Shown: positions 39,001-59,229 of the stretch, one piece after another | Position numbering within the stretch: position 1 is the first letter of the stretch | How the letters are laid out: each line of letters starts with the position of its first letter | Source: Ascidiella aspersa | Lineage: Eukaryota | Assembly: GCA_963924565.1 (NCBI GenBank) | Contig: OZ004611.1 | Coordinates: 21,142,001 to 21,206,000 of the forward strand | Length of the DNA: 64,000 nucleotides | Direction: 5' to 3' | Notes under the pieces: generated by a model | Told to the model about the DNA's origin: nothing | Databases searched by the model: none | Seen by the model: only the letters and a program-made list of their open reading frames with translations | Program-made: the position numbers and the translations under genes

Positions 39001-42000
39001 CACCTAAGCAGCAACAAGTTCACGTACTATTGCAAAACGAGTGTTATTGTTACACAACAATAAAATAGACGAATGACAATAGAACATTTTAACTGCTGAT
39101 AGCCTACCTAAAACAAAATCTAACTACGTTCATTGTGTTATACCAGTTTTGACTTCAATTTCTTGCGGAAACCTGACGATCTTCAACGAAATACCGGTTG
39201 AACATCACTGCTTTAACTCACAGTTTGGGCTATTGGACCAATCGTTAAATATTTGTTTTGTTTACATTATAACAAGTGGATATAGACATGAACAAAACCT
39301 TTCAAATGCTTAAAGACATTTGGAGTTTCATACGAGCGTTTAACGATTGCATTCCAGTGCCTTCCCGCAAAATATCTTGGGCATTGAATTCTTACCAGGC
39401 AAGTGACAACATTTGGCGTGAAGTATCGCCAACCTTGTAAATTTGCAATAAAAAAATGGTTGTTTTGTGCGTATATATATCGTTCTATTTTGGCGTATGA
39501 TTTTGGCAAATTTTTTTTTTGCGCAAACCTTTGCCGGCCACAAGTTATGAAATGCAGTCAGGAAGATTGACCTCACTAACCAGCTAATTTATCTTTTGCA
39601 TATTTACTTATGGATTCAGCAAATATATTTAGGGGTTAAACAGATTCTATCATGTCTAAGAAATCTATTGTTACCCCGGGCCACGGTTTAGATCAGTGAT
39701 TCCCAAACTGTGTGTCGCGGCACACTAGTGTGCTTCGAGAGATTGTCAAGCGTACCCAAACATATTGTAATTTTGGAAAAAAAGTTATTAGTATTACCAA
39801 TAGACGCACACACGCAAGCATTTTAGACCTAAATACGCACAATCCATTACAAATCAACAATATTGAGACATTTACATACATTGTGTGTCGTGTGTTGAGG
39901 GCAATTGTAAAATTACTCTATTGTTGTTCTGTTAAAAGTGCACCGCGAAACATTTAAGATTTTTTTAGTGTGCCCCAAGCTAAAAAGTTGAGAACCACTG
40001 GTTTAGATTGTGGTTCGGCTTTGCGAACTCCAGAACAATGAGTCTGTTTTCGCGTAACACGTGATGGGGGTGACTCAGGTAGGCATTGTACTTAATTTCC
40101 GTAACGAGAAAGCAAAGTCAACAATTACACTCCGGATATAAATCGCACCCGTGAATGGCACTACGCATTTAAACAAGGCCGAATTACGCACACCGAACCG
40201 CCGTCCGTAATTCAAACACCATGGGACAGATTTGTCGTCACTGAAAAAGTCGGAGCAGTTCGGTATTTGCTTTGTTTGCGAATTCGATGATTTGTGAATG
40301 ATTCATGCGGTGTTTCGATTGCTTTGCCGCAGCAGACAATTCAGCAACAACGTAGACAGAAAATGGACGAAACGGAGGTAAATTAACTTCGTGGTGATTC
40401 GACTTGGGCTTATGACGCTGAGCTAATCCTTTTACGTCGAACCCAACATTCTTTTGCGGTCCGTTGGCATTTTTTGTGTATTTGAAATAAACTTTCTCAG
40501 TAAAAAGTGAAGTACCCGTCGAAAGTAACTTGGCTTTTTAATAACACAAAAGCAAAATTATGTTCACTACCTTAAAAACATCACATTGGCACGTTTTAAT
40601 TACATGAATTCTGTTCATTTGTCATTATAATGACAGTATTTGTAATCGGATTGAACGGCTGTAATATTTTAAAATATCGGTTATCGAATAACATTCGAAG
40701 TATCCGAAATCCCGCACAGCGGTCATAAAATACATAATAATGGATTTTGTTGCTACATTTTACAAATCATAACACGATTTAGCCAATTGAAACCTAAAAA
40801 TATACGTAATACCATCACCCATACTCCTATTAGACACCAGATTTTTTTTTTGCTTTTTCTCGACTCGTTCCCTTCTGAGCCTGCATAGCTCAGTTGGTAG
40901 AGCGACGGTCCCGGCTTGACCGGAGGTCGTGAATTCGAACCTCACTTCAGGCTAGTTGTTTTTCTAGTCTGCCCTGCTTGCATCATTGATCGAGTCTGCA
41001 ATGGCTTTCGGTATACTAATGATATGTGAGCCGTAATCGTTGGTCAAAAAGCAGCTTCAGAAGGGCAAGATTTCAGTTGTAAACACACATATGTGTGTCC
41101 AGGTTTCATTGGAAGCTATTAACCAATTAAAATTAAACAGTATGTCAGCTTAGAATACTCCTCGACTTTATTTATGCAGCTGTGCAGTTTGTTAGACCAG
41201 GAGTTGCCAACCTTTTAGGCCTTAGGGCTAACCTTCATGAAACATAAATACTTTGCAGCACCTTAGTAGTATTTTCTCTAAGTGGTTAACTGTAGTGTTA
41301 CAATAAACTAACTTGAAGCAGTGTACATCAACTGTACACAAGGCAGAAAAAAACAGTGGATTTGCTGACTTCCTTTGTTAAATATCTCTTGACAATCAAG
41401 GATTATAAATTTCTTTCGATACCCTTTTGAGTTAGAAATGTCAGTTTGTGTTGGGTTTTCGCAACCTACCATTTTGGGGTTTCCCCTTTTTTCAAAGGTG
41501 AACTCAAACGCCTCGCCGCTCGGTCCGCTGGAGAGCGCCAGAGGAAGCAACTGTGCGGCGCCGTCGATCACGTGACCGCAGGAAAACTCGACGATGCGTG
41601 ACCGGTGGCGTGAGGTTTCCGCGTGGGCAAGCAATTGGTCGACGAGGCATGACGATGGCTGCATCGTACCGCCGGCCACTATTAGGGATCTACAGTCCTG
41701 CAATGTACGGGGAAAGCGACGTTCAGGCATAAACATTAGTTTTTTTTTTTAAGTCAGTTTTACTTTGGCCTTCAGGATATTTTTAATTTTAGTATCTGTT
41801 GAACCTATACTAAAGCATGGTAAGTAGCCCTACAGTACTGACCACCTTTATTCTTCATGATCTATGTACTACAAAATGAAAATCCACGGGAACCGGAGAA
41901 TCTACAGAACTCATATTAGATAACGTGGTGTAATGACTTAAGTCAATTACTTGACTTAAGTCTTTTGGACAAATGACTTGGTTTGAAATGAAGTGTTTTG

Positions 42001-45000
42001 TATTTCTTCTTGCTCTCATTTTTACTTCACTTGACTTGCGCAACTGATGACTTGGACTGGGACTTGACTTGTTATTTATTTAAAAAGACTTGACTTAGAC
42101 TTAAGTTATTTTACAAATGACTTGACTGGGACTTAGTAATTTAAAAATGACTTGTTTACAACACTGTTAGACAATGCTGGTTTACACCATGGAGATTCTT
42201 TAAATCCAGCTGCGCAAGTACCACTTACGTCCAGTATGTCCTTGAAATGCAGCGACGGATTCAACAAAAGGAACTTTAGGCCGGCTTCACCGTTCGTTGA
42301 CGTCACAGCAACCCGCGCGTCACGGCTGCATGACGTAAGAGAGCCGATGAAGCTTTCGACGTGCAGGAGCGGCGAACGCATTGTGACGTCATCGTGTGAC
42401 AGCGGTGGTTTGGAATCGCCCGGAGATTCTGCTTATTTGATAAAACAATTTTGTTTAAAATAATTTGTTATAAGTTTTAGAATAACGATAAACGTCGACA
42501 AATCAATCTGAAGCGTCTAATCAAAAGACAACGAATTAAAAAGGGCAATGTGTAGTACTTCGGTTAAATCTGTTTGGTTATCACATAATAAAATACTGTG
42601 ATTTTAACAGTTGTTATATCAGCAACGCGATCAAAAAAATATATAAGAATCATAATTTGCGATTTAAACTAACTTGTTGTTAAAATTCTTGTTAAAACCG
42701 TTTTTTAGGAATTCTGTAATTCTAATTCTAATCTTATTTTAAAACGCTATAATAAATCTAGTTGTACAAGTCTGTCCTGTGTCCTGGTTAGCATGCCACA
42801 AACCAAATAATACCTTTTCCAGAATTTTTGACGTCTTTCAAAAACGTGGAAAGAGACGACGCGGATTCGATTCCAGCTTCACACTTCTCCACGAATCCGG
42901 AAATCTTCTTGGCGATTTGACTTCTTTTGCAATATTTCAGCAACTGATAAAAATAAATGTTACAAAGATTAAACGATAAAGTAGGCGTGTGCTATAAATT
43001 TTGAGGTTTATTGGAAATACATTATCGTTGGTAAGTGCGACCTTCTAAGTGACTGAACACAATTATAAACACAAACGAAGACATAGTCCATGTTACTCTT
43101 CTCAGTATACTCAGGGATCACATGTTCTCATTTAAAATAATTACATTTTTTTTCTAATGTACATTTTTTTTTCTGATTAATTATGGGTGATAAAATCAAA
43201 AAAAATGAATGGTCCCCATTAAAGACACTGAAACCACACAAATCTCCTTATTTTTGCATATGGCGTTTTTTCCTAGAATTATTAATGATATTTTTATTTG
43301 TCCTTTCGTAGACGGAAAGAGTTTCAACCATTTTTTTTAACGTATTACCGAAAAAAAACATGAGAAAAACTAAATCACTTATGGTGTAGAAGAGTTTAAA
43401 CACTTATGGTGTAGATGAATTTAAAATGGTTTAGGGGTAAAGAGAGGTACTCACTGTCGTAACAGGGTTTTTTTGTGATGCCAATTATGCATATACTTAT
43501 ACAAAAAAGGTGAAAAATTCTTTAAACCTAAAACTTCACTGGAATTGTACAATGTACATACAAGACTCTTTTTTGTGACGAAAATGGTAGGGATACTTTT
43601 ACAGCCGTTTAAACTTCTGCATTTACCTTGAAAAAGTTGATGTTGTCCAGTGAGCAATGAAATAAAAAGTCGTTGATCGTAAATAGTTTTTCTGTCAACG
43701 TCTTTTTTTCTAAAAATAGACATCAAAGCGTGATCAAAGATATATTTCAGAGGTCGTTCTGTATTGTGGATATGTTACTAAATGATTCTAAGGTACAAGA
43801 TCGTAAATAAATATAATCTCTTATTGCAATGAACAAGTAAGTATGGACTGCGATTAACACGAAAGCATTACTGTTTTTTTTTCGTTTGAGTGAGGATTTA
43901 CGCAAAAAGTCAGTTTAAATAAACTTTCTTTGTGACTAAACTGTTTCGTCGTCTTGTCGATTTTAAATTTGTGTGCCATAAGTGAAACCAAACTCAAATT
44001 CAACTAAATAAGCTGCTCTTTATCATTGATGTGGAACCAGAATCGTTTGTTTTCACCATTCGGATTCAGGCAGATTTTGTTATTCGAAAGAATACTTTGA
44101 TTAAATAAGCTGCTAATAATTAAAAAACTTCAAGTTTCTTTTACAAACAGCAATAAAACTACTTATCAGCTGTTTTAAACTACATTGTTGCAAACAATGC
44201 CCTTTGTCATCTAACAACATTACAAATAACTTTACAGTGAAATGTAAACCAAAAGGTTAAATAGAAAATAATTAAGTGGATGTTTTAGCGACTTTTAGAG
44301 CATCACATTGATTTTTTTTTTTGTACACAACAAAGTAAAAAAAATGATTACACCGAATAAAAAAAAGTTTCATTTTGGATTTTATTCAAATTTAACTGGT
44401 TTTACCAGAAAATTTTCCTTAATATTACGTCATAAAACATATTGTGTTGCCTAGCAACGAAAAGTTGACAAATTGCCAAAAAAATCGGAAATTCAGTTGA
44501 GACTAGAGGAGGATTTGGTGTACAGGTGCGATTATTTGAGAGCTATTTTGGAGAATTTAAGTGCTATTTTGAAAATTATTGAGAGTTATTTCGGAGAGTT
44601 TAGAGAAAAAGTCGTTGAGACTTGCAGCTTTTGAACGCGCAATGGCATTCAAAGCAGTTTGGATTCTGCTTGCCGTGTGCATTGGCGTATTTTTTGTGAG
44701 ATGTGGAGCGGTAACTGAGGTGCCGCCGCTGAATGATCATCCCACATATGCCGATCTTCGATTGGTTTTGGAGGAAAAATACAACAAAGGGATTTTGGAA
44801 ATTCAGCAAAAACAGGTGAAATAAATGGAGAAACTTTAAAAACCTTTTTAAAATCCAGCAAAATAAACTCATACTAAATTATATGTCTATAATTTATTTA
44901 AACTTCGATTAAAGTTCGTGTTGACAAAATGCCTAATCGCTCAATAAAATTTATTTACTGGATTTTTTTTGTAAACAGTATAAGATAATGTGCACTGTAA

Positions 45001-48000
45001 AAAATATATAAACATATATTACTTTTTTCACAGGATGATTCATTGACATGGTTCGGTTTGAACCCACTGGAAGTATGTGAATCGGCTGAAAACCTAATTG
45101 GACTTGACATTTGTGGCCCCATCAAGGCTTTATTTGCCCGAACAAGAGAACACGAAACAGTAAGTCAGAGTATAGAGAGTTCAAATATATACAAAGCACT
45201 AAAACCACGTTAATGTTAGTATTGTTGTCGTTGTTAAGTACGAACCTTAATACCTTGCTGACTACGCAAGTTGTTTCAACCGTTTTTAAAATTTTCAAAG
45301 TCAGTACACATTTTTTAGCCAAAAAGTGTAACGTAAAATTAAATTATTTTTTTTTAAAAGGTTGCTTTGGCCAAAGCGCTGCATCTACCGCCACCGCGTG
45401 GCGTGTGCCGCAAACGGCGACTCGCGAAATTGGAAACAGCTTTGGTAAGTTTAAAATCGAAGGACAGCGCATGTTTAAATTTAGTTCGCCTGTCGTTCTG
45501 TTGCCTTGGTAAACACAAATCGAAGGCCAAATTTAAAAACAAAAAATATATAAAGCCTCTCTACTCAATTTCCAGAAATCTATCAAAAATCATTTTTAAG
45601 TACGCATAGAAGTTGTTCAAGTGTTATTTCAAAAAAAGCAACATATTTTGAATTCGATTTAGGTTTTAGAAGACATCGACTACGCGCCTGCAAGCGCAGT
45701 AACACAAACCAGTGATCCGTTGGCGGCAATGAGTTGGTGTATGTTCAACAAGGCGATTTGTGTCGGATGGGCAAACGCTAAGGAACGGGCGGCCATAGCA
45801 GAAAGCGCGATTCAAGCACAGGTAAGACTCTTGGAGCTCGGTTTTAAACCAAATTTGACGTAAACCACAAAGCAACTTACGATAAGTCCGTATATATTTC
45901 TATCTGAAACCGGTTTGTAAACGAAAATTTGGGAAAGGTGTAGGATTGTTTATTCAGTCAAACGCTAAATAATGATTAGTTATTAAGTCCAACGCTAAAA
46001 AATAAAATAAACCAGATTACAGTTTTAAAAATAGCGACAAGACAGTGGTGAACCTAGGATGGACCTGACCTGGCCATACATTAACCCGTCATTATTGCCG
46101 TGTCGCAAAATCTCTTTAAGTAACGTTTTAACCCAGTTTTTAATGCCGTGTCATTTAGTAACCTATTATTTCTTTGGTTTTAGATCGACACACCGGGATT
46201 CGAGAAGAAAAAGTTCATTCAACCGGTGTTGATCGACTCGCGACTGTTCTATCCGCTACTGGCCCTACTATTTTGCGCTTTTCTGCGGTTCAGAAAGCGA
46301 CGCGCTTATCCTTACATTTCGCCATGATTTTCAATAAAATATAATTATTTTAAAGCCGTGTATTGGACTGTTGGACGTTGGTGCTATTACTAGGGTTGTG
46401 TTTTATCAAAAAGCAGCACATTTTTTCTAGTTATGAATATGGTTTAGTGGTAAAACTTTTTTAGAATATCCGGTGACTGAGCCCGAAAGTTCTTGTGCGA
46501 GCCTTTTTGGCAAATGTTTTCAAAAAAACAAACGTTTAGCGTTAATACACAAAAACATATTTTTGGGATACGTTAATTTTGGGTAACTACTATTTTCCTT
46601 TATTTTTTTTACAAATATAACAACAAAGATAGTGGTGATTTTATTGCAGGATGTAAGTTTTTACTAAGAGCAGTTTTTCTCGATATTTTTTAGGCGGCGA
46701 CCCGCATACTGAGTAAAACAACAATTCTATTCACTGATAGTTTTTTGTAAAGCAAACAAAATAAAAAATAATAGCATAAAAATAAATGAATTTAACTAAC
46801 ATAAATCATGGCTTCGTATGACTTTCGCAATTTTCTCTAAATTTGGATAGTTTCTGATCAGAACCAATCTCATAAAATCTCAAACCATATAAAACTACTG
46901 CAGTCGGAGACCAAACCAAACCAAAACAAACAGCAAACACATTGATTGCGAAACACTTACTTGGAGATTGGCAATAAACATAAAACGTTCTTTCTTAAAC
47001 AGAAAAGGTCTTCTTACTCACCCTTGCTCGGCGCCAATGCCTCTTGCAGACGTTTCACCACGAATATGAGCTGATTGACGTAAAAAAGATTTTTAGCCTT
47101 CAGTCGCTTGATGAATTTCTGCTGATATCGAATCAGCTGGTTCCGCGCCTGCGTCACGCATTTTCCAGAAATCTTCAAGTAAAGATTTGAAAGCAAAGCG
47201 TCAATTTTCGATACAGATTTATGCAGGGATTTTAAATGGTTGTAGTTCTATACCAGGGGTGGGAAAATGTATTCAATGGAAGAGCCATTTGCAAAAAATA
47301 AAAGTATCAGAGAGCCTCAAAATTATTTCAATACAAAAACGGTAAATAATGTAAGTTCAACAATAATAACAGAATTGTAATATACCAAAACGGTATCAAT
47401 TCAACACAATAATAATAACGGTAATAGCAAAATAACACGCACAATATTACCAATATCAGTATTTTGTTTGATTTGCTAATCTCTGAAACATTAACAATAA
47501 AATTGCGTTGACTTGTTGTTAACTATCTCTTTGATTCTATGTCTAGGGTTACGTCATAAACGAAATGCTGGCCTTAAAAAAAGAAAAAGGGAGAAACGTT
47601 CATAAACGGTACTCTTTGGTAGCCGTTTGTTGTTTTGGAATTTTACGATTCTACTAGAAGAGCCACAAAAAACATGCCGGCGAGCCGCATGTGGCTCACG
47701 AGCCGCAGTTTGCCCACCCCTGTTCTATACAGTGTAGTTATTTTAGGTTCTGCAGTATATAGTTGTTCTATTTTCTTTTTCTTCACGTTTCAAACCCGTA
47801 TTAGATGTCGACAAATCATCTTTTACAAGATGCAGCATTCAAATCAGACCAGGGGCTTGCTCTCGCAGTTACCGATATCTATACGTACCACAAGGCTTGT
47901 ACTATTTTTCTCAGTATTGTTAAACAATTCATGATATATTTAATTTAAGAACGGATTAAAGTGTAACGATGTTTCGGCGCATGCTGTAGTGTATTTTAGT

Positions 48001-51000
48001 TAAATTCTTTTTAGACTTTTTATCGAAAAGAGTCGAGATTAATAACCAATAGATTGTTATTTTTTTAAGTAGCAATTAGTTCCTTTTCATACAAGGGATT
48101 TATGTGAAAACAAATGAAGTGATAAGTAGCTTCACATTTACCGCTTTTTTTATTAGAAGCATATTTTTATATACACACATTCCGCTTACAGTTTCAAGCC
48201 AGCCTAGTTCCAAGCCAATACTTAAACGATAGTGGACACATATTGTTACGTGCTTAATTAGCACTACAAAATTATCACCGGTTGCTAATTACGCCGACTG
48301 TAAATTCTAACATTCATTATTAATTTTGCGCCTTCGTTCTTAAATGTAGGGCTAGGAATTAGGTTTTCGCATTTCAAGACACATATCCAATTGAAACACG
48401 TTGTGCCCTGTAGTGCGTTCATGTCGACAATATACATTAGTGATTGAGATATCCGATACTTTGTATTTTATTCCGATACCGATAAAAAAACGCCGATCGA
48501 ATACCTTTGCCAAATGATGTCAATATTGTGGCTAACTATGTAAAATTTACCAAATTGGTAATGTTTTTCGGGTTGTTCAGATAATTGCTATAGCACTTTA
48601 AGTAACTTAGTTTAAGCAAGCAATCGCAAACCATGACTGAAATTGCGATATGTATGAAACTTGGAATATCGGCTCCGATATGATTATATCCCTAATATGC
48701 GCCGCCGTTCACAAAGCAATCGCAATTTAAAAGCTATACAAAATAAAAGTACGAGTCACTCCTACCCGAACGGAATACATGGAGTTCATAGCTTCGACGA
48801 GGTTGTGCGCTTCGTCCACTATTATCACCGAATCCTTGAGTCGAATTCCCGAGGCTTCCCGTGTAGATCGGTGCAGTAGGGTCTGATAAGGCAACACGAC
48901 CAACTGGCAAAGCGAAATTGAACGCCTAAAAGCGGAGTCGAATGCGAAAATATGAACTTTTTTTTCATTGCGAAAACAGAATTCGTTAAGTAAAATCAAA
49001 GTGCGTGAACCTAACAAATTTTACAGCAAAATTTTCATGTTTACTTGTGATGCTTTCAGTTTTACAGAGAAAGGGCGAAAAACTGTTTTACCCCAGCTGT
49101 CAAACACCAGGATATGGAAAGTTGTCGACGTTGGAAAAGCAAAATATAAATTTCGAACGTGTATATAAAAAAACAGCTATTTTGACTAATTACTATAATT
49201 TTTAGCGACACCTTTTCATACTTCTTATGTCGTTTAACAAACAATATAATAAAAATTCAGGAATTACTACCGGGTTGCATAGTATGGACACGCCTCTATC
49301 GACTTTCCCTGCTTAACGACGTCTTCAATGTCGTGCACATCTCGAACAATTGTTTCCGTAAGATCCGATATTCCTTCGTTGTTGCTATAGTAACAGCAAG
49401 TCCCGGTGGAGGCTACTTTTCGTCTTTTTTTAGGTTGTTCTGTAAAACCATGGCATTTTAACTCGTTATAACCATTAAAACAAACAAATTTGTTATAAGG
49501 TGATGACATAATAATAAGAATCCGCAATACGAACCTGTGGCTTTATCATTTCTATTTGCGTTTTTCTGCATTTCAAGACATCGGTCATTTATCTGAAAAT
49601 ACCAAATGTACGCTAAGAATAAAATCATTATTACAGCTATCATTGTGATTTTAAACCATTTTAGATTCGACTGTAATGCAGAACTTTTTGTAACTTACCA
49701 ATTGCAGGGATTTCAGTTTTCTTACAGCTTCGTTGACACAGAGTGAATTTCTTGAGGCGAGGGTTGTCACAGTAACCGTAAACTGGCCTTTTTCTGTACT
49801 GAGGGATTTTCCAAAGGGGGACTTTTTTAGTTCATTCACAAATTGTGATAACTGAGAGTGAGTCCTGCTGCAGAAATATATCTATAATAGAGAACACAAT
49901 GTCTCATTAAGTTAGAATTGATTAACTTAGCTTTAATTTAACATAACTTTATTTATATCTTGCAAATTAAAAAAAAATCCAGAAAAATAACAATTTTATA
50001 AGTTACCAAGCAAACATAGTATTAAAAACTGCATTTTGTGTGTATCATATATATTAGCAAGGCAGATACATAAAATTAAAACACTGAAATTACCCAACAA
50101 AAATTTAACTACACCAAACACAACCTAAATAGGCAGTAGAAAGAAATCAATATTCAGTAATTCTTACTCTGGTCATGTGATCTTCATCATTAGTTTGCCA
50201 TTTATTGCTTTCTTCATCTTCATCATGACTTTCATATTCTTTTGGCACTAAATCTTCCATATTGTCATCTGTAATTAAATTGGATAATTGTAGAGATAAG
50301 AAGCCACACATACTTTTTTACTGATTTTTGTATTGTTAGTTCTTTTTTTATATTTGTTTTGAACAGCTAGGTTTGTTTAGTGAGAATTATGATGAGTAAA
50401 CAAGAACTTAATTTTACAGACAGAAACTACCCAAATTGTTTTGTGTGTTGTCCTTATATGACTCAATTTCCTTTCTAGCTTTTTCCATTATAGCTAAAGT
50501 TTCATCCTCTTGTTTTCTCTACAAAAAACATTTTGTTGTAAAACAAAACAAACATAGTTAAACTTATAAATAAAAAATAAAAAATAAATAATCAAGGAAA
50601 TAAAAGTAAAAACTAATGTATAGAAATAGGCAATTGAAATTTTGTAGCAAATATAAAATTAGGGACAACAAACTTAAATACCTTTTTTCTATACACTTTA
50701 CTACTTGATTTAACATCCAATGACCCCGTTTTATTTTTGATCATTTTCATAGTAGTTTTTCTTTTTAGTCTTTCTTCTTGTACTTGTTTTGCATCTTCTA
50801 CATCTTTGCTTAAAGCCTGACGATCTTCAAAGTCTTGAATCCAATCCAGACTATTGCTTGAGTGTGATGGCTGTTTTAAAATGACAATGGTTGATTGATT
50901 ATTTACAAGGTTGTGATGACTTAAGTTAAATGACTTGACTTGTCTTTAATCTTTTGTACAAATACCATAAATTAAGATATTTAGGCAATTGGTTTGGTTT

Positions 51001-52067
51001 GAAATTTTAGTGTATTTGTAGCATCTGTTTGGCTTCAGAATACATACCTTGATTGTTTTCTAAAAAGTGTTCTTGATATTTGATTTAGTTTTTGGTGGTT
51101 GCTGTGTGAAACAATGCTTGAAAAAAAATTTAGAAGACCTAATCCAGATTGAAACTATTCTTCATTGCGCAAGCAGAGTTTATGCAGCTTAAAATTATTT
51201 AAGTTTTGTAATGAAGTTACTTCTTAAATTTGGGCGACTTAAATTAAAGTATGATACCGTAAGAGTGACTGACATGTTTGATCTACAACAAATTTTACAG
51301 CGATATTGCATGTTCATGGGGACTGAAGGTAATACCACTGCTGGAAAGTATGGCAGATCTCGACAAGATCTCACGGGTGCACAGCCGAAAAAAAATCCGG
51401 GTGACCGGGTGCAACAAAGGCCAAAAAAGTGCACATCGGGTTTACTTTATGATTTTCCGATGCATTCTGTATTGCATACATTGCACTGTAAACGTATTCC
51501 GCACAAACGTTTTACATATTTCGGGTGGCAGTTCGGATTTTTTCGGGGTGCACTTTTGAAAGTTTGACAAAATCTCGCGGGTGCACTTGCCATACTTTCC
51601 ACAGTGGGGTAATACTAAATCCCCCGCGCAGGCCCAACTTTTTAACCTGAAAGGCACTGACATGCTATCCAAAAATAACTTGTTTAGAACTATGTTAGCA
51701 GAATGATAACTAAAATTTAACTATTAAATAAAATGTACAACAAAGCATTTAAGTTGTATACATGTTTGTTGTCTTCTAACAACTTGTTTATTCTGCTTTC
51801 CTCTCTGTCTTCATGGTCCCTAAGCCATGTTAGAGACCCACATATAAGAGAAAGTGACTTTCCAGTTCCTGAAAATTCAATTATGCCGTTAAATTGTTTT
51901 TTTTTTTGCAATAAAAAAGCCTAGAAAAAACCTGTTGGGCTCTCAAAAATGCCAATCTTTTTTCCTTCAATTGCAGCATACAAACTCTTCATGAAATCCA
52001 GCTGGATGGAATACGGTTCGAAAGGAAATGGGAACCCTTCTGGTGGAAAAAGTTTGCAATCGTCCAT
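27089..52067 (-). CDS. DDX11: ATP-dependent DNA helicase DDX11/ChlR1 (Fe-S DEAH helicase), ~20 exons
   Basis: ATG 52067 ([23 protein letters not shown]|[10 protein letters not shown]), [14 protein letters not shown] (~49880), Fe-S Cys motifs (LCVN, NDRC, ACPYY), [10 protein letters not shown] (~48800), TINDFLF..DNINFFK (43627-43709), LKFLLLNP (42228-42428), [16 protein letters not shown] (41469-41697), [13 protein letters not shown] (34956-35105), VFREPK (31590-31693), [29 protein letters not shown] (29823-29978), [15 protein letters not shown] (29362-29459), [18 protein letters not shown] (29062-29197), terminal exon FFRDKET* (27089-27112). Confidence 0.93.
27487..27507. promoter_or_regulatory. 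RFX X-box-like site with an adjacent CRE half-site in the last DDX11 intron
   Basis: GTGACCATAGTAAC (reverse strand GTTACTATGGTCAC) immediately followed by TACGTCA. Confidence 0.4.
31812..31965. promoter_or_regulatory. Intronic promoter-like module: GC box, CCAAT, CRE and two RFX X-boxes
   Basis: GCCCCGCCAATC (31812-31823), TGACGTCA (31848-31855), GTTGCCATGGCGAC (31890-31903), GTTTCATGGCAAC (31953-31965). Confidence 0.6.
32438..32880. mobile_element. Dispersed repeat (related copy ~38855-39030) flanked by a diverged ~52-bp direct repeat
   Basis: Shared GTGGCGA..CAACATTTTAGAT..ATCGCATAGAATATGTG..TGGGCCTGTTTG..GAGAACAAAATTGAC..AAGCAGCAAC; flanking repeats at 32383-32434 and 32901-32952. Confidence 0.6.
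33570..33645. repeat. Perfect inverted repeat, 37-bp arms, 2-nt loop
   Basis: AATAAAAGCTTGAGAAGCGCACCGCTCCGAACAAAAA-GA-TTTTTGTTCGGAGCGGTGCGCTTCTCAAGCTTTTATT. Confidence 0.95.
38020..38262. mobile_element. Two head-less SINE bodies in inverted arrangement (imperfect palindrome centred ~38185)
   Basis: 38020-38180 is the reverse complement of the SINE body at 40958-41108; 38192-38262 is a more diverged + strand copy starting at the same TTTTCTAGCCTGCCCT point. Confidence 0.7.
39347..39562. mobile_element. MITE family B (TGCATT(C/T)CA termini)
   Basis: TGCATTCCAGTGCCTT ... GGCCACAAGTTATGAAATGCAGTCAGG; homologous to ~55397-55620 and ~59763-59985 in RPL23 intron 3. Confidence 0.65.
39694..40000. 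mobile_element. hAT-type MITE with a perfect 8-bp TSD
   Basis: CAGTGATTCCCAA ... TTGAGAACCACTG termini; GTTTAGAT at 39686-39693 and 40001-40008. Confidence 0.85.
40879..41110 (+). mobile_element. tRNA-derived SINE (head with A and B boxes plus body)
   Basis: GCCTGCA TAGCTCAGTTGGTAGAGC (A box) ... GTGAATTCGAACCTCAC (degenerate B box) TTCAGGC; aberrant anticodon arm; the body recurs at ~38020-38262. Confidence 0.75.
41925..42166. mobile_element. GACTT-array repeat/MITE copy
   Basis: Same GACTTGACTT...GACTGGGACTTA...GACTTGTTT layout as 567-1026. Confidence 0.6.
44425..44458 (+). promoter_or_regulatory. CRE-like site and perfect RFX X-box upstream of the nested gene
   Basis: TTACGTCA (44425-44432) and GTTGCCTAGCAAC (44446-44458), ~185 bp upstream of ATG 44642. 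Confidence 0.65.
44642..46327 (+). CDS. Uncharacterised 228-aa signal-peptide/single-pass membrane protein, nested antisense in a DDX11 intron (5 exons)
   Basis: Exons 44642-44815, 45034-45159, 45361-45444, 45663-45821, 46184-46327; all four introns GT-AG and phase 0; no stops; signal peptide [23 protein letters not shown]; C-terminal [14 protein letters not shown] then RFRKRR; AATAAA at 46333-46338. Confidence 0.8.
47254..47722. mobile_element. hAT-type MITE with a perfect 8-bp TSD
   Basis: CAGGGGTGGG ... CCCACCCCTG termini; TTCTATAC at 47246-47253 and 47723-47730. Confidence 0.85.
48438..48694. mobile_element. Probable MITE with CCGATA/TATCGG subterminal motifs
   Basis: TAGTGAT..ATCCGATAC..CCGATACCGATA at the left end, ATATCGG..ATATCCCTA at the right end; no second copy seen in the window. 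Confidence 0.4.
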
Positions 52068-52453
52068 TTAGGCGGTAAATTTTTAATTTTAGCGGCTAAA
52101 ACATGACAAAACCAAGATAAAAAAAACTCACAATTTAGAAAAACACACAAGACTGTACGAATTTCGATTCGCGCGTTTAAGGGAATTTCCCGAACTAAAT
52201 GCCAAGTGTTCGTATTAAATATTATCTCTATATGAATCAGCACTGAAAGATTATTTTTCAAAAGTACTAAAAAACATAATTGCGTTGAATATTAAAATCT
52301 TGGACATCAAAAGCAAACCAAAAGCAAACAAAACAATATCTTTAGGATACAAGTATTTGAATTAATGGCATTTTTGCTGTAGGCCTACAGTAGTTCATTA
52401 AAAGTTAAAAAAGCGAAGTTAGTTGAACATAAGGGTAATCTTGTTTGCTCTGT
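52068..52453. promoter_or_regulatory. Bidirectional promoter region DDX11/MTX2 (duplicated at 56434-56819)
   Basis: Divergent start codons ~390 bp apart; local CpG cluster with TTTCCCG/TTCGCGC (E2F-like) motifs. Confidence 0.55.
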
Positions 52454-54056
52454 ATGTCCTTATTACAAGAGGCGTTGTTCAGTCAAATGGCGGGTAAGTG
52501 TTTAAGTATTTTTTTGTTGTTGTAATATAACATGCAACAACCATACATTGCAGGTTCAGATGGAGTGCTAAACGACATGATATTATTCAAACCAGATGAA
52601 GGCAAGTCAAAATGTTGTATTTGAATTTCTGTCATAAAAAACAACGAATTAGCTTTTTTGTTTTAGAAAATCAAATTCTTGTCAACGAAAATGCGGCCTC
52701 AATTTCTGTACAAGCTTTTTTCCGAATGTGCAAGTTGGAAGTTCAGGTAATTATGCTAGGTATAATGTGATAAATCAATATTCAAGGGTGTTTTTCCAAT
52801 AGGTACAGCACCGCACAAACACTGAACACATCTCACCATCTGGGAAGGTTCCAGTCCTATTATCTGGAAATTTTGTAATTTCTGAACCATTGCCAATATT
52901 TAACTTTATTAGCCAGAAAGTAAGTTAAAAAATTTAAAATATTTACCTCAAAATAAAACATAGTTAACTACTGTAATGTATTTCTTTTTAGGGATTATCT
53001 CTAAGCAAACATTTAAGTGACAAAGAAAATCAAGACCTGAAGGCCTATATTGAGCTTATCAATAATATCCTTATTCCAGCTGAATTGTTTATTATGTGGT
53101 TACACATGGATACTCTGAAACAGGTTGAATGAACATAAATATTTTTATATTAATATATTCTTTATCAGTACACATGAAGGTTTGGTGCTGGTCTCGAACC
53201 CTACCACATTTTTGTTTGGGGTTTTATATTGCTAATATTATTTGGCTTGGGGTGGGTAAAGTATTATAATTACATTAATTCTCCCATTTCTATTTATTTC
53301 TCGTAGGTTAAATTTAAAGTGGTAGGTAGACCATCGCCAAAAGTTTTTAAATAGGTACTTACAAGCCAACAAAATATTAAAAGCATACATAAACAAAAAC
53401 TGTACATAATCTTTTTCATGTTAAAGGTCACTTGGAAAAGATATGGGCATCCCTACCCATGGCCCCTCAATCACATTTTATCATTTTGCAAGCAACAGAG
53501 TGTTACAAGTTACTTAAATGCAATTGGGTGGGGTAAGAATCAAAGGTCACTTACCACAATGGATGAAGAAGTACGAATGTGTTGTGCGGCACTGTCACAA
53601 AAATTAGGCAACAAGGTTTATTTCTTTGGAGACAAGTAAGTGTAAATAGTTTGGCAAGCTGCTTTGTTCTTTTTAATTGTATTGACAATTAACACATTTA
53701 AACATATTTTTTTTTTTTTTTTGCCAAACGCCTTAAACCAAATGGCAAACTAACTTCCCAACCACACCTTATGCAAATGTTACACAATCTAAGGCGGAAA
53801 TCCTAACTACAGATAAACTTCTATAATTAAATTGACAACACCTAACTGTAAAATTCACAGGTGAATAAATTGCTTTTACAGGCCAACAGAGCTGGATGCA
53901 TTAGTGTTTGGTCACCTCTACACCATTATCACTACAAGCTTGCCAGACAACAGACTTGCAAAGACCATTCAGCAATTCCGAAACTTGGTCACATTTTGCC
54001 AAAATATTGATGCATGCTATTTCAAAAGTAAACGATCGACATCAGATGTAGAATGA
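52454..54056 (+). CDS. MTX2: Metaxin-2, copy 1 (7 exons)
   Basis: Exons ~52454-52493, 52553-52601, 52667-52746, 52803-52919, 52992-53123, 53427-53635, 53882-54056 give MSLLQEALFSQMA..QILVNENAASISVQAF..SPSGKVP..RYGHPYPWPLNHIL..PTELDALVFGHLYTI, matching vertebrate MTX2 motifs. Confidence 0.92.
53184..53338. mobile_element. MITE family A copy in an MTX2 intron (duplicated at 57550-57704)
   Basis: GCTGGTCTCGAACCCTACCAC ... GTGGTAGGTAGACCATCGCC. Confidence 0.6.
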
Positions 54057-54059
54057 TAT

Positions 54060-54656
54060 GTTGTTATTTATGTTTTGTTTTCGTGAAGTCTGTCTAATAA
54101 ATGTTTCACTATTTATGCAACAAAGTATTAAAACATCTCTTTTTCCTGTAAAGGTATATTTGAGAAATGACCGGTTTTGCATCTAGAAAACGTATTGTTA
54201 TTTGTTATTTATGTTTTTGTGAGGTATGTCTAATAAATGTTTCACAATTTATGCAATGATGAAGTATTCAAAACATATTTTTCCCAGAAAGGTGTGTTAG
54301 TAGTGGTCCCCAATAAAATTGTATTAGTGGATTTAACAATTGCCTGGACCCCTACTGAAGTTGTGACTTGTGACAGTTATATGTCTGTCTAATAAATGTT
54401 TCACTATTTATGCAACGTATTAAAACATCTCTTTTTCCCAGAAAGGTATATATTTGAGAAATGACCGGTTTTGCATCTAGAAACGGATTGTCATTTGTTA
54501 TTTATGTTTTTGTGAGGTCTGTCTAATAAATGTTTCGTAATGAAGTATTCAAAACATATTTTTCCCAGAAAGGTGTGTTAGGAGTGGTCCCCAATAAAAT
54601 TGTTTTAGTGGATTTAACAATTGCCTGGACCCCCTACTCAAGTTTTGACAGTTATA
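54060..54656. repeat. ~295-bp tandem repeat built from two related subunits in the MTX2 3' region (duplicated at 58426-59022)
   Basis: GTCTAATAAATGTTTC recurs with AATAAA at 54096, 54232, 54391 and 54525. Confidence 0.85.
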
Positions 54657-54863
54657 ATAACTAGAGTAGCTGTAGGTACTAAATTTTCCTAAAGTATATA
54701 TTCTTCTGTTTTAGCAACTTTTCTCACTAGAATAGGTTTATTTTTACCGAAATGCACAGGAACAATTATACATCTTTCTGCTTAACAACCTTATTTTGAA
54801 CTTTGATGAACATTAAAGCATTCTCACAGAAGATAAAAAAGCAGTAGGCCATGATAACATTTA

Positions 54864-55832
54864 TTATGCGATAGAACTTGCATTTGACGCTATCCTTGGC
54901 CAGCAATCTGCGCATTCTTTGGCGACGGGTCCAGTGATTGCAGAGCCTGTGAAGCGTAAGACAACACTATTATCATACTTTAAAACAATAACCTGAAATA
55001 AACAAGGGGGCTGAATAAATTAGATATAAAGTTAAATAGGCATTTTAGAATTATAATTTTTCACTTTTGATAAAAATACCTTTCATTTCGCCTTTGTTAT
55101 TTACAATCACCCCAGCATTGTCTTCGAAGTACAAGAATTGCCCATGCTTCCGATGAATCGGCTTTGATTGTCGAATTATTACAGCCGGATGGACTAAACG
55201 AAAAATATTTCGTATTATTCCTTTATAAAAACACATATACAACACCAGAAGGTCTCCGGGATGGAATTTTTTAAGTTGTTTTGCTCAGAAACAAGAGAGT
55301 ATCAACAACTTTGGTTCTGCCCCGAAAGATGGTTGAAAATGTTTCATCACAGCTTTATTAATAATGCTAAAACTAAGTTTTACGTGGCTGATGTCACTGA
55401 TGCATTCCAGTGCCTTACCACCAAAGATCTTTGGCGTGAAATTCTGCCAAAAACCACAACAGTGATGTAATTTTGTGTGAACATCACCAGCATAGTCAAT
55501 TTACACAGAAAAATTGCCGTTTGTGGTGTATATATGGTCCTATTTTAGCGTCTTATTTCAGACAAAATAATTTATGGCAAGAATATTTGGTGGCCACAAG
55601 TTATGAAATGCAGTCAGGCCTCAGAGCAGGCTAGATGTGTCTAACAGTCTTTTCTTAAATGGAAATCCTTGATTTATAAAACTGATTCAGTTATGTGACC
55701 AACCTTTCTTTCGAAGTTCAGGCTTTCCCTTTTTCACTGTTGCAAGAACGACATCACCAACACTGGCTGCTGGCAAACGATTGAGGCGACCTCTGATGCC
55801 CTTTACAGCAATAATGTAAAGGTTCTTGGCAC
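54864..55832 (-). pseudogene. RPL23: Partial RPL23 copy (exons 3-5 only) created by the tandem duplication
   Basis: Appears identical to 59230-60198 but lacks its own exons 1-2 and promoter. Confidence 0.8.
55282..55354 (-). ncRNA. C/D box snoRNA, SNORD2/snR39B-like (duplicate copy)
   Basis: Identical to 59648-59720. Confidence 0.75.
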
Positions 55833-55931
55833 CTGACAAGCACAAATTCAACAATCAGTCGTAAATTTTGTTATTTTCACTATTCAGTCGTAAATTTTGT
55901 TGTAGTCATCACATAATGTATGGGCAAAAGG

Positions 55932-56006
55932 TTGCTCAGAAACATGAGAATATCAACAAAATGTTTTCTGCCCCGAAAGATGGTAGAAAATGTTTCATCA
56001 TTGCAA
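55932..56006 (-). ncRNA. C/D box snoRNA, SNORD2/snR39B-like (duplicate copy)
   Basis: Identical to 60298-60372. Confidence 0.75.
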
Positions 56007-56316
56007 ATCAACAATACACAAAATTAAAACAACTATAATAAAAGTTCAGAATTAGTTTCATTTAAAAATAAAGTGCACCAAAAAGTTAACAATCGATGGA
56101 GCAGCGATTCGCTTTTTGGGGTGAAGCTGGATCTGTTAAAAAAAAAACACTTGCAAATGCACTTGCTGTATCTTCCACAGTGGCTTGCACTATTAATAAA
56201 AAAGGCACTGGTCTAGAATTTCACCACTGCGTTCAAACAATTATTAAATCAGCGCACAATATTTAGATTAGTGTTTTGGTGGGTAAAGTATTATTGTTAT
56301 ATTTATTCTTACACAT

Positions 56317-56433
56317 TTAAATCTTTTTTCCTTCAATTGCAGCATACAAACTCTTCATGAAATCCAGCTGGATGGAATACGGTTCGAAAGGAAATGGGAA
56401 CCCTTCTGGTGGAAAAAGTTTGCAATCGTCCAT
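56317..56433 (-). pseudogene. DDX11: Truncated DDX11 exon 1 copy (38 codons, stop at the duplication junction)
   Basis: [38 protein letters not shown] followed by TAA (56317-56319) from RPL23 intron 2 sequence. Confidence 0.8.
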
Positions 56434-56819
56434 TTAGGCGGTAAATTTTTAATTTTAGCGGCTAAAACATGACAAAACCAAGATAAAAAAAACTCACAAT
56501 TTAGAAAAACACACAAGACTGTACGAATTTCGATTCGCGCGTTTAAGGGAATTTCCCGAACTAAATGCCAAGTGTTCGTATTAAATATTATCTCTATATG
56601 AATCAGCACTGAAAGATTATTTTTCAAAAGTACTAAAAAACATAATTGCGTTGAATATTAAAATCTTGGACATCAAAAGCAAACCAAAAGCAAACAAAAC
56701 AATATCTTTAGGATACAAGTATTTGAATTAATGGCATTTTTGCTGTAGGCCTACAGTAGTTCATTAAAAGTTAAAAAAGCGAAGTTAGTTGAACATAAGG
56801 GTAATCTTGTTTGCTCTGT

Positions 56820-58422
56820 ATGTCCTTATTACAAGAGGCGTTGTTCAGTCAAATGGCGGGTAAGTGTTTAAGTATTTTTTTGTTGTTGTAATATAACATG
56901 CAACAACCATACATTGCAGGTTCAGATGGAGTGCTAAACGACATGATATTATTCAAACCAGATGAAGGCAAGTCAAAATGTTGTATTTGAATTTCTGTCA
57001 TAAAAAACAACGAATTAGCTTTTTTGTTTTAGAAAATCAAATTCTTGTCAACGAAAATGCGGCCTCAATTTCTGTACAAGCTTTTTTCCGAATGTGCAAG
57101 TTGGAAGTTCAGGTAATTATGCTAGGTATAATGTGATAAATCAATATTCAAGGGTGTTTTTCCAATAGGTACAGCACCGCACAAACACTGAACACATCTC
57201 ACCATCTGGGAAGGTTCCAGTCCTATTATCTGGAAATTTTGTAATTTCTGAACCATTGCCAATATTTAACTTTATTAGCCAGAAAGTAAGTTAAAAAATT
57301 TAAAATATTTACCTCAAAATAAAACATAGTTAACTACTGTAATGTATTTCTTTTTAGGGATTATCTCTAAGCAAACATTTAAGTGACAAAGAAAATCAAG
57401 ACCTGAAGGCCTATATTGAGCTTATCAATAATATCCTTATTCCAGCTGAATTGTTTATTATGTGGTTACACATGGATACTCTGAAACAGGTTGAATGAAC
57501 ATAAATATTTTTATATTAATATATTCTTTATCAGTACACATGAAGGTTTGGTGCTGGTCTCGAACCCTACCACATTTTTGTTTGGGGTTTTATATTGCTA
57601 ATATTATTTGGCTTGGGGTGGGTAAAGTATTATAATTACATTAATTCTCCCATTTCTATTTATTTCTCGTAGGTTAAATTTAAAGTGGTAGGTAGACCAT
57701 CGCCAAAAGTTTTTAAATAGGTACTTACAAGCCAACAAAATATTAAAAGCATACATAAACAAAAACTGTACATAATCTTTTTCATGTTAAAGGTCACTTG
57801 GAAAAGATATGGGCATCCCTACCCATGGCCCCTCAATCACATTTTATCATTTTGCAAGCAACAGAGTGTTACAAGTTACTTAAATGCAATTGGGTGGGGT
57901 AAGAATCAAAGGTCACTTACCACAATGGATGAAGAAGTACGAATGTGTTGTGCGGCACTGTCACAAAAATTAGGCAACAAGGTTTATTTCTTTGGAGACA
58001 AGTAAGTGTAAATAGTTTGGCAAGCTGCTTTGTTCTTTTTAATTGTATTGACAATTAACACATTTAAACATATTTTTTTTTTTTTTTTGCCAAACGCCTT
58101 AAACCAAATGGCAAACTAACTTCCCAACCACACCTTATGCAAATGTTACACAATCTAAGGCGGAAATCCTAACTACAGATAAACTTCTATAATTAAATTG
58201 ACAACACCTAACTGTAAAATTCACAGGTGAATAAATTGCTTTTACAGGCCAACAGAGCTGGATGCATTAGTGTTTGGTCACCTCTACACCATTATCACTA
58301 CAAGCTTGCCAGACAACAGACTTGCAAAGACCATTCAGCAATTCCGAAACTTGGTCACATTTTGCCAAAATATTGATGCATGCTATTTCAAAAGTAAACG
58401 ATCGACATCAGATGTAGAATGA
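56820..58422 (+). CDS. MTX2: Metaxin-2, copy 2 (appears identical to copy 1)
   Basis: Same exon structure at offset +4366. Confidence 0.9.
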
Positions 58423-59229
58423 TATGTTGTTATTTATGTTTTGTTTTCGTGAAGTCTGTCTAATAAATGTTTCACTATTTATGCAACAAAGTATTAAAAC
58501 ATCTCTTTTTCCTGTAAAGGTATATTTGAGAAATGACCGGTTTTGCATCTAGAAAACGTATTGTTATTTGTTATTTATGTTTTTGTGAGGTATGTCTAAT
58601 AAATGTTTCACAATTTATGCAATGATGAAGTATTCAAAACATATTTTTCCCAGAAAGGTGTGTTAGTAGTGGTCCCCAATAAAATTGTATTAGTGGATTT
58701 AACAATTGCCTGGACCCCTACTGAAGTTGTGACTTGTGACAGTTATATGTCTGTCTAATAAATGTTTCACTATTTATGCAACGTATTAAAACATCTCTTT
58801 TTCCCAGAAAGGTATATATTTGAGAAATGACCGGTTTTGCATCTAGAAACGGATTGTCATTTGTTATTTATGTTTTTGTGAGGTCTGTCTAATAAATGTT
58901 TCGTAATGAAGTATTCAAAACATATTTTTCCCAGAAAGGTGTGTTAGGAGTGGTCCCCAATAAAATTGTTTTAGTGGATTTAACAATTGCCTGGACCCCC
59001 TACTCAAGTTTTGACAGTTATAATAACTAGAGTAGCTGTAGGTACTAAATTTTCCTAAAGTATATATTCTTCTGTTTTAGCAACTTTTCTCACTAGAATA
59101 GGTTTATTTTTACCGAAATGCACAGGAACAATTATACATCTTTCTGCTTAACAACCTTATTTTGAACTTTGATGAACATTAAAGCATTCTCACAGAAGAT
59201 AAAAAAGCAGTAGGCCATGATAACATTTA

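Follow-up and report, generated by a model that had tools for sequence, protein, structure and literature searches.

A compact gene of five exons lies on the + strand of the 64-kb window (the whole stretch of DNA analysed here), with a coding span of 44642-46327 (Table 1). The gene is contained within an intron of the DNA-helicase gene DDX11 of this ascidian, which is read from the opposite strand. Exons encoding DDX11 residues 394-448 and 455-483 were found on its two sides with no DDX11 match in between, and the host was identified by its best match, DDX11 of Phallusia mammillata (73% identity), followed by that of Ciona savignyi (64%). The antisense nesting claimed in a preliminary description of this DNA is borne out by these flanking exons, and the arrangement resembles that of other nested antisense intronic genes in being an independently transcribed unit, antisense to its host and confined to one of the host's introns, that has a promoter and polyadenylation signal of its own. 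Each exon length is a multiple of three, all four introns are bounded by GT-AG and lie in phase 0, and GC content is 0.44-0.60 in exons versus 0.23-0.35 in introns. The polyadenylation signal described 5 nt past the stop codon is present at 46333 (AATAAA). Genome searches with exons 1, 2, 4 and 5, each used separately, indicated a single-copy gene, and a local tblastn search detected no paralogue within ±100 kb. Literature searches found no papers on this gene and no report of a nested gene in an ascidian DDX11.

Table 1. Features of the nested gene and its surroundings (positions in the window).
Feature	Position	Strand	Remarks
Host DDX11 intron	43710..47021	-	3312 nt; contains the whole gene
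CRE/ATF-like octamer TTACGTCA	44425..44432		weak; 13 copies in the 64-kb window
Perfect palindromic RFX X-box	44446..44458		no mismatch; ATG 184-196 nt downstream
Core promoter and 5′ UTR	44459..44641	+	without upstream ATG
Exon 1	44642..44815	+	174 nt, aa 1-58; predicted signal peptide (~23 aa) and start of ectodomain
Exon 2	45034..45159	+	126 nt, aa 59-100; CX11C, predicted helix-loop-helix
Exon 3	45361..45444	+	84 nt, aa 101-128; lone Cys116, RKRR 117-120
Second X-box-like site (1 mismatch)	45500..45515		intron 3; overlaps forkhead-type GTAAACA; may be chance
Exon 4	45663..45821	+	159 nt, aa 129-181; predicted long helix carrying CX6C
Exon 5	46184..46327	+	144 nt, aa 182-228; stalk; hydrophobic anchor, short and containing Cys212; basic stop-transfer; YXX-hydrophobic motif in a tail of 7 aa; stop
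Polyadenylation signal AATAAA	46333..46338	+	5 nt past the stop

Transcription was assessed in a stranded RNA run (X3, tissue unstated), of which about 6% of reads were used. First-mate depth in the four bins covering 44411-46014 was 12.1, 8.85, 3.74 and 7.45 on the - strand and 0 on the + strand, which by the usual library convention denotes RNA of the + strand; in the non-repeat DDX11 bins, read direction was opposite to that of the nested gene. Depth at individual sites was 19-29 in exons 1-4 (21 at 44776/44783 in exon 1, 22-29 in exon 2, 22 at 45381 in exon 3, and 19-20 in exon 4), exceeding the non-repeat bin means of DDX11 (0.4-2.7), and fell to 0 at the intron 2 sites 45171 and 45334. 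The bin means agree with coverage of the exons alone, and the bin holding exon 5 had a depth of 5.67 in the mate direction of the gene. Splicing was read from exon versus intron depth, the 15 of 559 joint records that were listed being repeat records with no junctions of the gene among them, and surplus depth in the first bin suggests that transcription starts at approximately 44500-44580. Exons, reading frame and exon-confined RNA thus agree with the five-exon, phase 0 splice model that had been proposed, and we regard it as confirmed that this is a real, transcribed and spliced gene. At least 12 coding variants were found among those listed, six synonymous and six non-synonymous over 162 and 522 sites, respectively; these 12 give a pN/pS of ~0.31 and none creates a premature stop. 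Both of the indels listed within the gene are intronic.

The spliced product of 228 aa has the features first attributed to it, namely a predicted signal peptide, an ectodomain with five cysteines, an RKRR motif, a hydrophobic segment, a stop-transfer sequence and a short tail. Kyte-Doolittle (KD) 19-mer values peak at the N-terminus (2.4), where a hydrophobicity reading makes signal cleavage after residue 23 plausible, and at residues 196-214 (1.8), a short anchor with about 14 apolar residues. Cysteines are located at positions 13 and 21 in the signal, at 73, 85, 116, 154 and 161 in the ectodomain (CX11C, a lone C, and CX6C), and at 212 in the anchor. Residues 117-120 (RKRR) conform to the furin consensus, which in substrates lies in an exposed stretch on the lumenal side, and the tail conforms to a tyrosine sorting-motif consensus; RX[KR]R appeared in 338 of 10,000 shuffles (3.4%). 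Anchoring by GPI was considered and set aside, as a 13-residue basic C-terminus extends beyond the hydrophobic stretch. Fold predictions were made on single exons rather than on the full spliced protein: for exon 2, single-sequence AlphaFold2 predicted helices at 11-22 and 28-41 (pLDDT 82), and for exon 4 AlphaFold2 predicted helices at 19-28 and 30-51 (pLDDT 59).

External searches for homologues used exon-sized queries and were, for that reason, weak. None of the five exons matched a Pfam family at E≤10. Against a library of 5.8 billion proteins, exon 4 (run against the longer class) gave 10 candidates, none of which scored, and exon 2 gave no candidate with three common 5-mers; this k-mer search detects close relatives only. 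DDX11 of both Phallusia and Ciona was recovered by the same search, which indicates that tunicate proteins are represented in the library. In a phmmer search of 1.84 billion representatives, exon 4 had four matches (E 2e-5 to 9e-4), which were rejected as tandem-repeat proteins with scores summed over repeats. Among PDB sequences, one match to exon 4 (E 0.12) and a match of exon 1 to TREM1 (E 0.22) were taken as chance, and exon 2 had no match. The best ESM Atlas value for exon 4 was 0.88, to unnamed prokaryotic clusters and with recognition below threshold, and exon 2 had no usable match. Exon 4 also gave 595 pattern matches in metagenome contigs and 47 in viral contigs, none of them confirmed, so that nothing points to descent from a viral envelope gene. 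The initial failure to recognise a family was upheld exon by exon in Pfam, PDB, the protein libraries and the ESM Atlas, and by these weak searches the gene appears to be an orphan, with no homologue or family detected.

As first described, the promoter X-box is perfect, with zero mismatches, and lies near the likely start site; the window holds only two such sites, the promoter copy among them, and an X-box with at most one mismatch occurs in 14 of 637 300-bp windows. Genome-wide, we counted 97 exact copies against 4-8 expected from Markov models. About half of the first 30 fall in coding-looking frames and six in one repeat family, and when 150 of the 326 listed frames, from seven exact X-box loci, were compared with Pfam, no neighboring gene could be named. 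RFX sites concentrate at the transcription starts of ciliary and spermiogenesis targets, according to the available text of PMC4498915 and PMC5838959, and the latter gives a full X-box within ~500 bp of the start site as the window for RFX targets, within which the perfect X-box of the nested gene falls. The available portions of PMC4498915 also state that RFX factors drive genes unrelated to cilia, those of MHC class II among them, and that RFX2 and CREM targets in mouse scarcely overlap; no RFX data were found in the accessible parts of PMC4691747 and PMC4427456. The proposed connection to RFX and ciliary genes stands in part. An X-box with at most one mismatch was found within 2.1 kb upstream of four of five tektin genes, versus 13 of 74 background 2.5-kb windows, but at none of four B9/IFT20 starts, making four of nine in total (an MKS1-like locus, whose start was not located, was left out of the count), and many exact copies are coding or repetitive. 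X-box and CRE were not supported as a paired signature; the CRE-like octamer is common, with 13 copies in the window. The forkhead-type pattern RTAAACA, overlapped by the second X-box-like site, has a frequency of roughly one per kb across the window.

We tentatively favor, at somewhat short of an even chance, the view that the gene encodes an RFX-driven, helical, single-pass surface protein of cilia or sperm, predicted to be a small type I protein. Bound to the perfect X-box close to where transcription starts, RFX would drive the gene independently of DDX11, with expression proposed in cells bearing motile cilia or sperm flagella. The signal peptide of ~23 aa would route the protein to the secretory pathway, residues ~24-195 would form a mostly helical bundle, and the basic stop-transfer would set the topology. 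For the mature protein we infer disulfides, cleavage, a sorting motif and a binding role. Cys154 and Cys161, spaced i/i+7 on one predicted helix, would pair with cysteines of other helices, and the odd fifth cysteine may be free to form a dimer or other inter-chain bond. Cleavage by a furin-type convertase may occur behind RKRR120, leaving an outer piece of 11 kDa and an anchored piece of 12 kDa, and the tyrosine motif in the seven-residue tail may sort the protein to endosomal or acrosome-like vesicles. Since there is no catalytic or signalling tail, the protein would act through contact with a binding partner on a different cell or surface, and its proposed role is that of a surface adhesion or recognition molecule.

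Comparison with known proteins yields partial likenesses. The CX11C helix-loop-helix predicted for exon 2 recalls the central hairpin of saposin-like proteins, which have six cysteines with an N-terminal CxxC; in contrast, the orphan protein has five ectodomain cysteines, no N-terminal CxxC, and no Pfam or structural match. IZUMO1, SPACA6 and TMEM95, small type I membrane proteins of vertebrate sperm that serve gamete adhesion and fusion, also have a signal peptide, a helical cysteine-bearing ectodomain and a single anchor; RFX-type regulation is plausible, and they are candidates for a protein working in a similar way. This superfamily is marked by expression restricted to sperm and by being required when gametes fuse. 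IZUMO-type four-helix bundles carry paired CxxC cysteines, whereas the ectodomain studied here has none, its pattern being CX11C, a lone C and CX6C, and it likewise has no Ig domain and no Pfam match. Homologues of IZUMO1, SPACA6 and TMEM95 are reported as unidentified in ascidians (PMC9265791). Two ascidian sperm proteins, Urabin (a GPI-anchored CRISP protein) and HrTTSP-1 (type II, with EGF, ricin and protease domains), share lineage and a proposed egg-coat binding role but differ in domains and topology as given in the available text of PMC9265791, and none of their domains is found in the orphan protein.

Other roles for a protein of this architecture have to be weighed. It could be a pro-ligand anchored in the membrane of sensory or neurosecretory cells that are RFX-positive, freed by furin-type cleavage and acting in a juxtacrine or paracrine manner, and SCF, CSF1 and FLT3L are anchored ligands of comparable design. 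The signal peptide is consistent with this, as are the Cys-stapled helical ectodomain, the RKRR motif, the anchor with its very short tail, the perfect X-box and the CRE-like site, yet we consider it unlikely: RKRR sits mid-ectodomain, between predicted helical segments and not adjacent to the membrane, and the protein is without a known homologue or receptor. We are similarly doubtful that it is a broadly expressed, fast-evolving membrane protein of the secretory pathway or endosomes, with an X-box that is incidental or read by a ubiquitous RFX. Its easy detection in RNA whose tissue of origin is unstated, with an exon depth of 19-29 that exceeds DDX11, points in this direction, along with the short anchor, the tyrosine motif and the numerous exact X-box copies outside promoters. 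However, chance would rarely place a zero-mismatch non-coding X-box less than 200 nt from an ATG (14 of 637 300-bp windows even at one mismatch), and for housekeeping proteins of organelles homologues can usually still be detected, whereas the exon-sized searches found none here.

The preliminary description overlooked a match in gene anatomy to class II helical cytokine genes. It raises the improbable idea that the product is a membrane-tethered, possibly shed cytokine of the IFN/IL-10 type, a group with a five/six-helix fold, and that it is the missing ligand for class II cytokine receptors in tunicates. Lamprey and lancelet interferons were found by a filter on gene anatomy, which in a lamprey screen led from 132 genes with 0-0-0-0 phases to 14 short ones with a signal peptide and then to one that was helical (available text of bioRxiv 10.64898/2026.05.30.728932). 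The nested gene has the five coding exons and 0-0-0-0 phases of such genes (that preprint and PMC2654155, as far as their available text goes), a predicted signal of ~23 aa (KD 2.4) against the 22-23 aa asked for, a length of 228 aa against one near 200 and a limit of <300 aa, and predicted helices in exons 2 and 4. The genome also holds two receptor-like genes with no ligand detected, both with Tissue_fac matches just over cut-off and with TM-bearing exons. For one, on C1 at ~16.25 Mb, the top PDB matches were IFNAR1 (E 0.002) and then IL10RB, IFNGR1 and IL20RA; for the other, on C7 at ~10.32 Mb, the exon tried gave only an unrelated PDB match. From Ciona, one class II receptor (PMC3210801) and a JAK (PMC3670263) have been published. 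Against a cytokine, what exon 5 encodes is a membrane anchor followed by a tail instead of the final helix of a soluble protein, no ISRE, NF-kB or GAS motif, as would suit an IRF/NF-kB/STAT-inducible promoter, was found in 43720-44641, and no exon matched a Pfam cytokine family at E≤10, although exon-sized queries are insensitive. The Interferon and IL10 profiles, PF00143 and PF00726, matched neither this genome nor the controls, a result that does not in itself show absence. The exon-size order, 174/126/84/159/144, is unlike the long-short-long-short pattern of IFN/IL-10 genes, and the gene differs from them further in being single-copy and unclustered and in having no sequence match. Supposing that phase 0 applies to about half of introns, as is generally the case, ~5% of genes with five exons would have all four introns in phase 0. 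In the available text of bioRxiv 10.64898/2026.05.30.728932, Foldseek searches of AFDB and Styela clava placed the IFN fold only in lancelets and vertebrates, and the accessible part of bioRxiv 10.64898/2026.08.17.745176 held no ascidian or urochordate terms.

That the locus is not protein-coding at all, being a chance splice model or a non-coding antisense RNA, would be in keeping with exon scores of just -1.9 to 4.7 under a codon model trained on DDX11, with the failure to find a homologue and with the absence of the gene's junctions among the records listed, but is scarcely credible in view of exon-confined RNA from one strand with zero depth at intron sites, an open frame of 228 codons with signal peptide and anchor, a pN/pS of ~0.31, and the intronic position of both listed indels.

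The verified gain is a modest one, an orphan surface-protein gene of a kind that fast-evolving ascidian genomes probably hold in numbers. If the cytokine interpretation were true, its consequences would be larger. Interferons are reported in lancelets and lampreys and were not found in tunicates, according to the available text of bioRxiv 10.64898/2026.05.30.728932; the gene would fill this tunicate gap, and would show a tethered, protease-released form of the interferon/IL-10 type. Because it passes the published gene-anatomy filter, folding the spliced protein would directly probe the idea of a missing ligand. For the RFX-driven surface protein that we favor, the significance would lie in fertilization. 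According to PMC9265791, no proteins of gamete fusion are known from ascidians, nor have ascidian homologues of the vertebrate factors been identified; a helical orphan with a single membrane pass and RFX control would be the kind of candidate to include in a screen for gamete-fusion proteins.

Joining the five exons of the orphan gene, which runs antisense within an intron of DDX11, produces a single open frame of 228 codons. All five exons have lengths divisible by three, each of the four introns has GT-AG borders, GC content is 44-60% in the exons versus 23-35% in the introns, and an AATAAA polyadenylation signal lies 5 nt past the stop. The product is predicted to carry a signal peptide (hydrophobic N-terminus, KD 2.4 over a 19-mer), a helical ectodomain with cysteines at 73, 85, 116, 154 and 161 and RKRR at residues 117-120, and a single anchor (residues 196-214, KD 1.8), then a basic stop-transfer segment and a tail of 7 residues; no N-glycosylation sequon is present in the 228 residues. 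The preliminary description was accurate on every one of its sequence claims (exons, frame, cysteines, RKRR, AATAAA, X-box and TTACGTCA). AlphaFold2, given each exon alone as a single sequence, models exon 2 as a helix-loop-helix (pLDDT 82), for which structural searches returned nothing specific, and exon 4 as helices at 19-28 and 30-51 (pLDDT 59). Cys154 and Cys161 fall at i/i+7 along one predicted exon 4 helix, a spacing that would favour bonds between helices over local ones. As a furin-type site, RKRR is suggestive but not decisive; when the ectodomain was shuffled 10,000 times, RX[KR]R appeared in 338 of the results.

Features of the orphan gene, its promoter and the receptor-like genes
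Feature	Location	Strand	Basis or context
CRE-like octamer TTACGTCA	44425		
X-box	44446-44458		upstream of orphan ATG
Orphan exon 1	44642-44815	+	splice model
Orphan exon 2	45034-45159	+	splice model
Orphan exon 3	45361-45444	+	splice model
Orphan exon 4	45663-45821	+	splice model
Orphan exon 5	46184-46327	+	splice model
Class II cytokine receptor-like gene	contig C1, ~16,246,000-16,250,000 (loci L066, L073)	minus	FN3-type exons, PDB matches
Second class II receptor-like gene	contig C7, ~10,312,700-10,318,500 (loci L065, L075)	minus	marginal Pfam, exon anatomy

The host gene was identified from a minus-strand DEAD_2 exon (Pfam) whose best matches, among 120 listed of 330 proteins at E<=1e-5, are the Phallusia mammillata (73%) and Ciona savignyi (64%) DDX11 proteins, which makes this an ascidian genome, probably that of a phlebobranch. 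By tblastn, Phallusia DDX11 residues 394-448 align to 47205-47041 and residues 455-483 to 43710-43624, with no DDX11 match between 47041 and 43710; splice sites place the intron at 47021..43710, enclosing the entire orphan gene and its promoter. High-copy DDX11 intron repeats (40802-41202, 41949-42166, 44010-44130, 47218-48420 and 51228-51628) show very high contig depth and numerous loose ends. Nearby, a head-to-tail duplication of 4366 bp (51954-56319 and 56320-60684; 99.98% identity) spans the first coding exon of DDX11, a metaxin-like GST_C gene (+) and an RPL23/uL14 gene (-); it must be a very recent event or else a product of the assembly.

One RNA run and two contig sets from the same species were mapped to 40000-52000. 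Across four bins covering 44411-46014, first-mate minus depth in the RNA run was 12.1, 8.85, 3.74 and 7.45 and plus depth was 0, whereas non-repeat DDX11 bins had depths of 0.4-2.7 in the opposite direction. This opposition shows that the library is stranded and the orphan RNA plus-strand, as had been proposed. At 44776 the depth was 21 and at 45381 it was 22; exon 2 had 22-29 and exon 4 had 19-20, and depth was 0 at intron 2 positions 45171 and 45334; assuming exon-only coverage, the bin means correspond to 16-28-fold depth. The 15 joint rows listed, of 559, are all repeat-derived, so the splicing claimed earlier stands on exon-restricted coverage and not on junction reads. Among the 40 variant rows listed (385 further), at least 12 are coding, split evenly between synonymous (6, over 162 sites) and non-synonymous (6, over 522 sites) changes (pN/pS ~0.31); none of the 12 creates a stop, and both indels listed within the gene are intronic. 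Searches of the 308.6-Mb genome with exons 1, 2, 4 and 5 each returned the exon itself and nothing else, and local tblastn found no paralogue in the window together with 200 kb of flanking sequence. The orphan gene is shown to be an independent, spliced, constrained, single-copy gene.

The exact X-box 13-mer has 97 genomic copies, against one for a backwards control and 4.3-7.7 expected under window-trained Markov models of order 0-4. The first 30 copies include 6 from one repeat family, ~16 in coding-looking frames and 8 that are non-coding; with so many repeat or coding copies, promoter enrichment must lie below the raw ratio. That dispersed family (loci L010, L011 and L024-L027; C1 ~8.50 Mb, C2 ~4.25 Mb) is 77-88% alike, and ten further exact copies cluster on contig C5 at 5.10-5.33 Mb. 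In passages from two studies, RFX sites concentrate at the start sites of genes for spermiogenesis and cilia (PMC4498915, PMC5838959). Allowing one mismatch or none, an X-box precedes 4/5 tektin starts, our positive control, by 310-2009 nt, and precedes 0/4 B9/IFT20 starts (a count that leaves out one MKS1-like locus), the background being 13/74 2.5-kb windows and 14/637 300-bp windows. The X-box/CRE pair, previously read as a signature, loses that status, because the octamer occurs 13 times in the 64-kb window and mouse RFX2 and CREM targets scarcely overlap (PMC4498915). In the likely 5′ UTR (44525-44600), a short motif of TATTT-GAGA type can be picked out by eye three times, each time imperfectly. 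Elsewhere, two near-identical B9D2-like genes face each other (C2 10,702,452-10,706,049), and two near-identical tektin-like copies lie on C9 (23,611,523 and 23,625,630).

We tentatively propose, at somewhat under even chances, that the orphan gene encodes an RFX-controlled, partner-binding single-pass protein of motile-ciliated or sperm-forming cells. RFX would control the gene in such cells; the ectodomain would be braced by inter-helix disulfides with one cysteine left free, furin might process it, and a Tyr motif might direct sorting. The protein would act by binding a partner, since it has no catalytic domain and no signalling tail. RFX also figures in an alternative that we consider unlikely, in which the product is a ligand that RFX-positive sensory or secretory cells shed; an organelle protein with broad expression is doubtful to the same degree.

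The absence of a recognised family, reported from the outset, held across single-exon queries of 28-58 residues, which found no relative among 5.8 billion proteins (word-based, needing close identity), in Pfam, the PDB or the ESM Atlas, or in metagenome and viral contigs. Such short queries and a close-identity search could miss a diverged Phallusia or Ciona orthologue or a remote fold relative, and the product may have diverged from another established family, a reading that overlaps with the others. Four matches among 1.84 billion representatives were rejected as repeat artefacts. The orphan differs in cysteine pattern from the IZUMO1/SPACA6/TMEM95 group and is not shown to belong to it, or to Urabin or TTSP-1 as described in PMC9265791; its mode of action may be likened to that of small single-pass sperm or cilium proteins.

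A tethered class II cytokine is far less probable. In the sections consulted of a recent preprint, the filter that yielded lamprey and lancelet interferons asked for five exons, introns phased 0-0-0-0, a signal of 22-23 residues, a length of <300 residues and helices; of the lamprey genes, 132 remained after the phase step, 14 after signal/size and 1 after helix. The preprint's structural screen, in which Styela clava and AFDB were included, gave no interferon in other invertebrates (bioRxiv 10.64898/2026.05.30.728932). The orphan gene has this anatomy, and the genome holds two class II receptor-like genes. The C1 gene matches IFNAR1 (E 0.002) and, more weakly, IL10RB, IFNGR1 and IL20RA in the PDB, and also has a TM exon plus cytoplasmic frames rich in Ser/Tyr; the C7 gene has Tissue_fac marginally above the Pfam cut-off and two FN3-like halves, together with a TM exon and an extended cytoplasmic frame, and the exon tried against the PDB gave no receptor match. 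The two could form a receptor pair; for Ciona, the published passage names only one class II receptor (PMC3210801), and a JAK has also been published (PMC3670263). Three FN3 exons with identical scores also lie ~24 kb apart on C8 (22.78-22.83 Mb). Against a cytokine, the orphan's final exon is an anchor, no ISRE, NF-kB or GAS consensus occurs in 43720-44641, and no profile matched, either in Pfam for exon-sized queries or with the interferon and IL10 profiles in the genome or the controls. IFN/IL-10 genes, moreover, have a different exon-size order. We do not assign the orphan gene to the class II cytokines. That it is non-coding we regard as barely credible.

We found no paper on this gene, and judge it to be a real orphan that is new but belongs to a familiar kind, a nested gene for a lineage-restricted single-pass protein; its reading as a tethered cytokine combines low probability with high interest.
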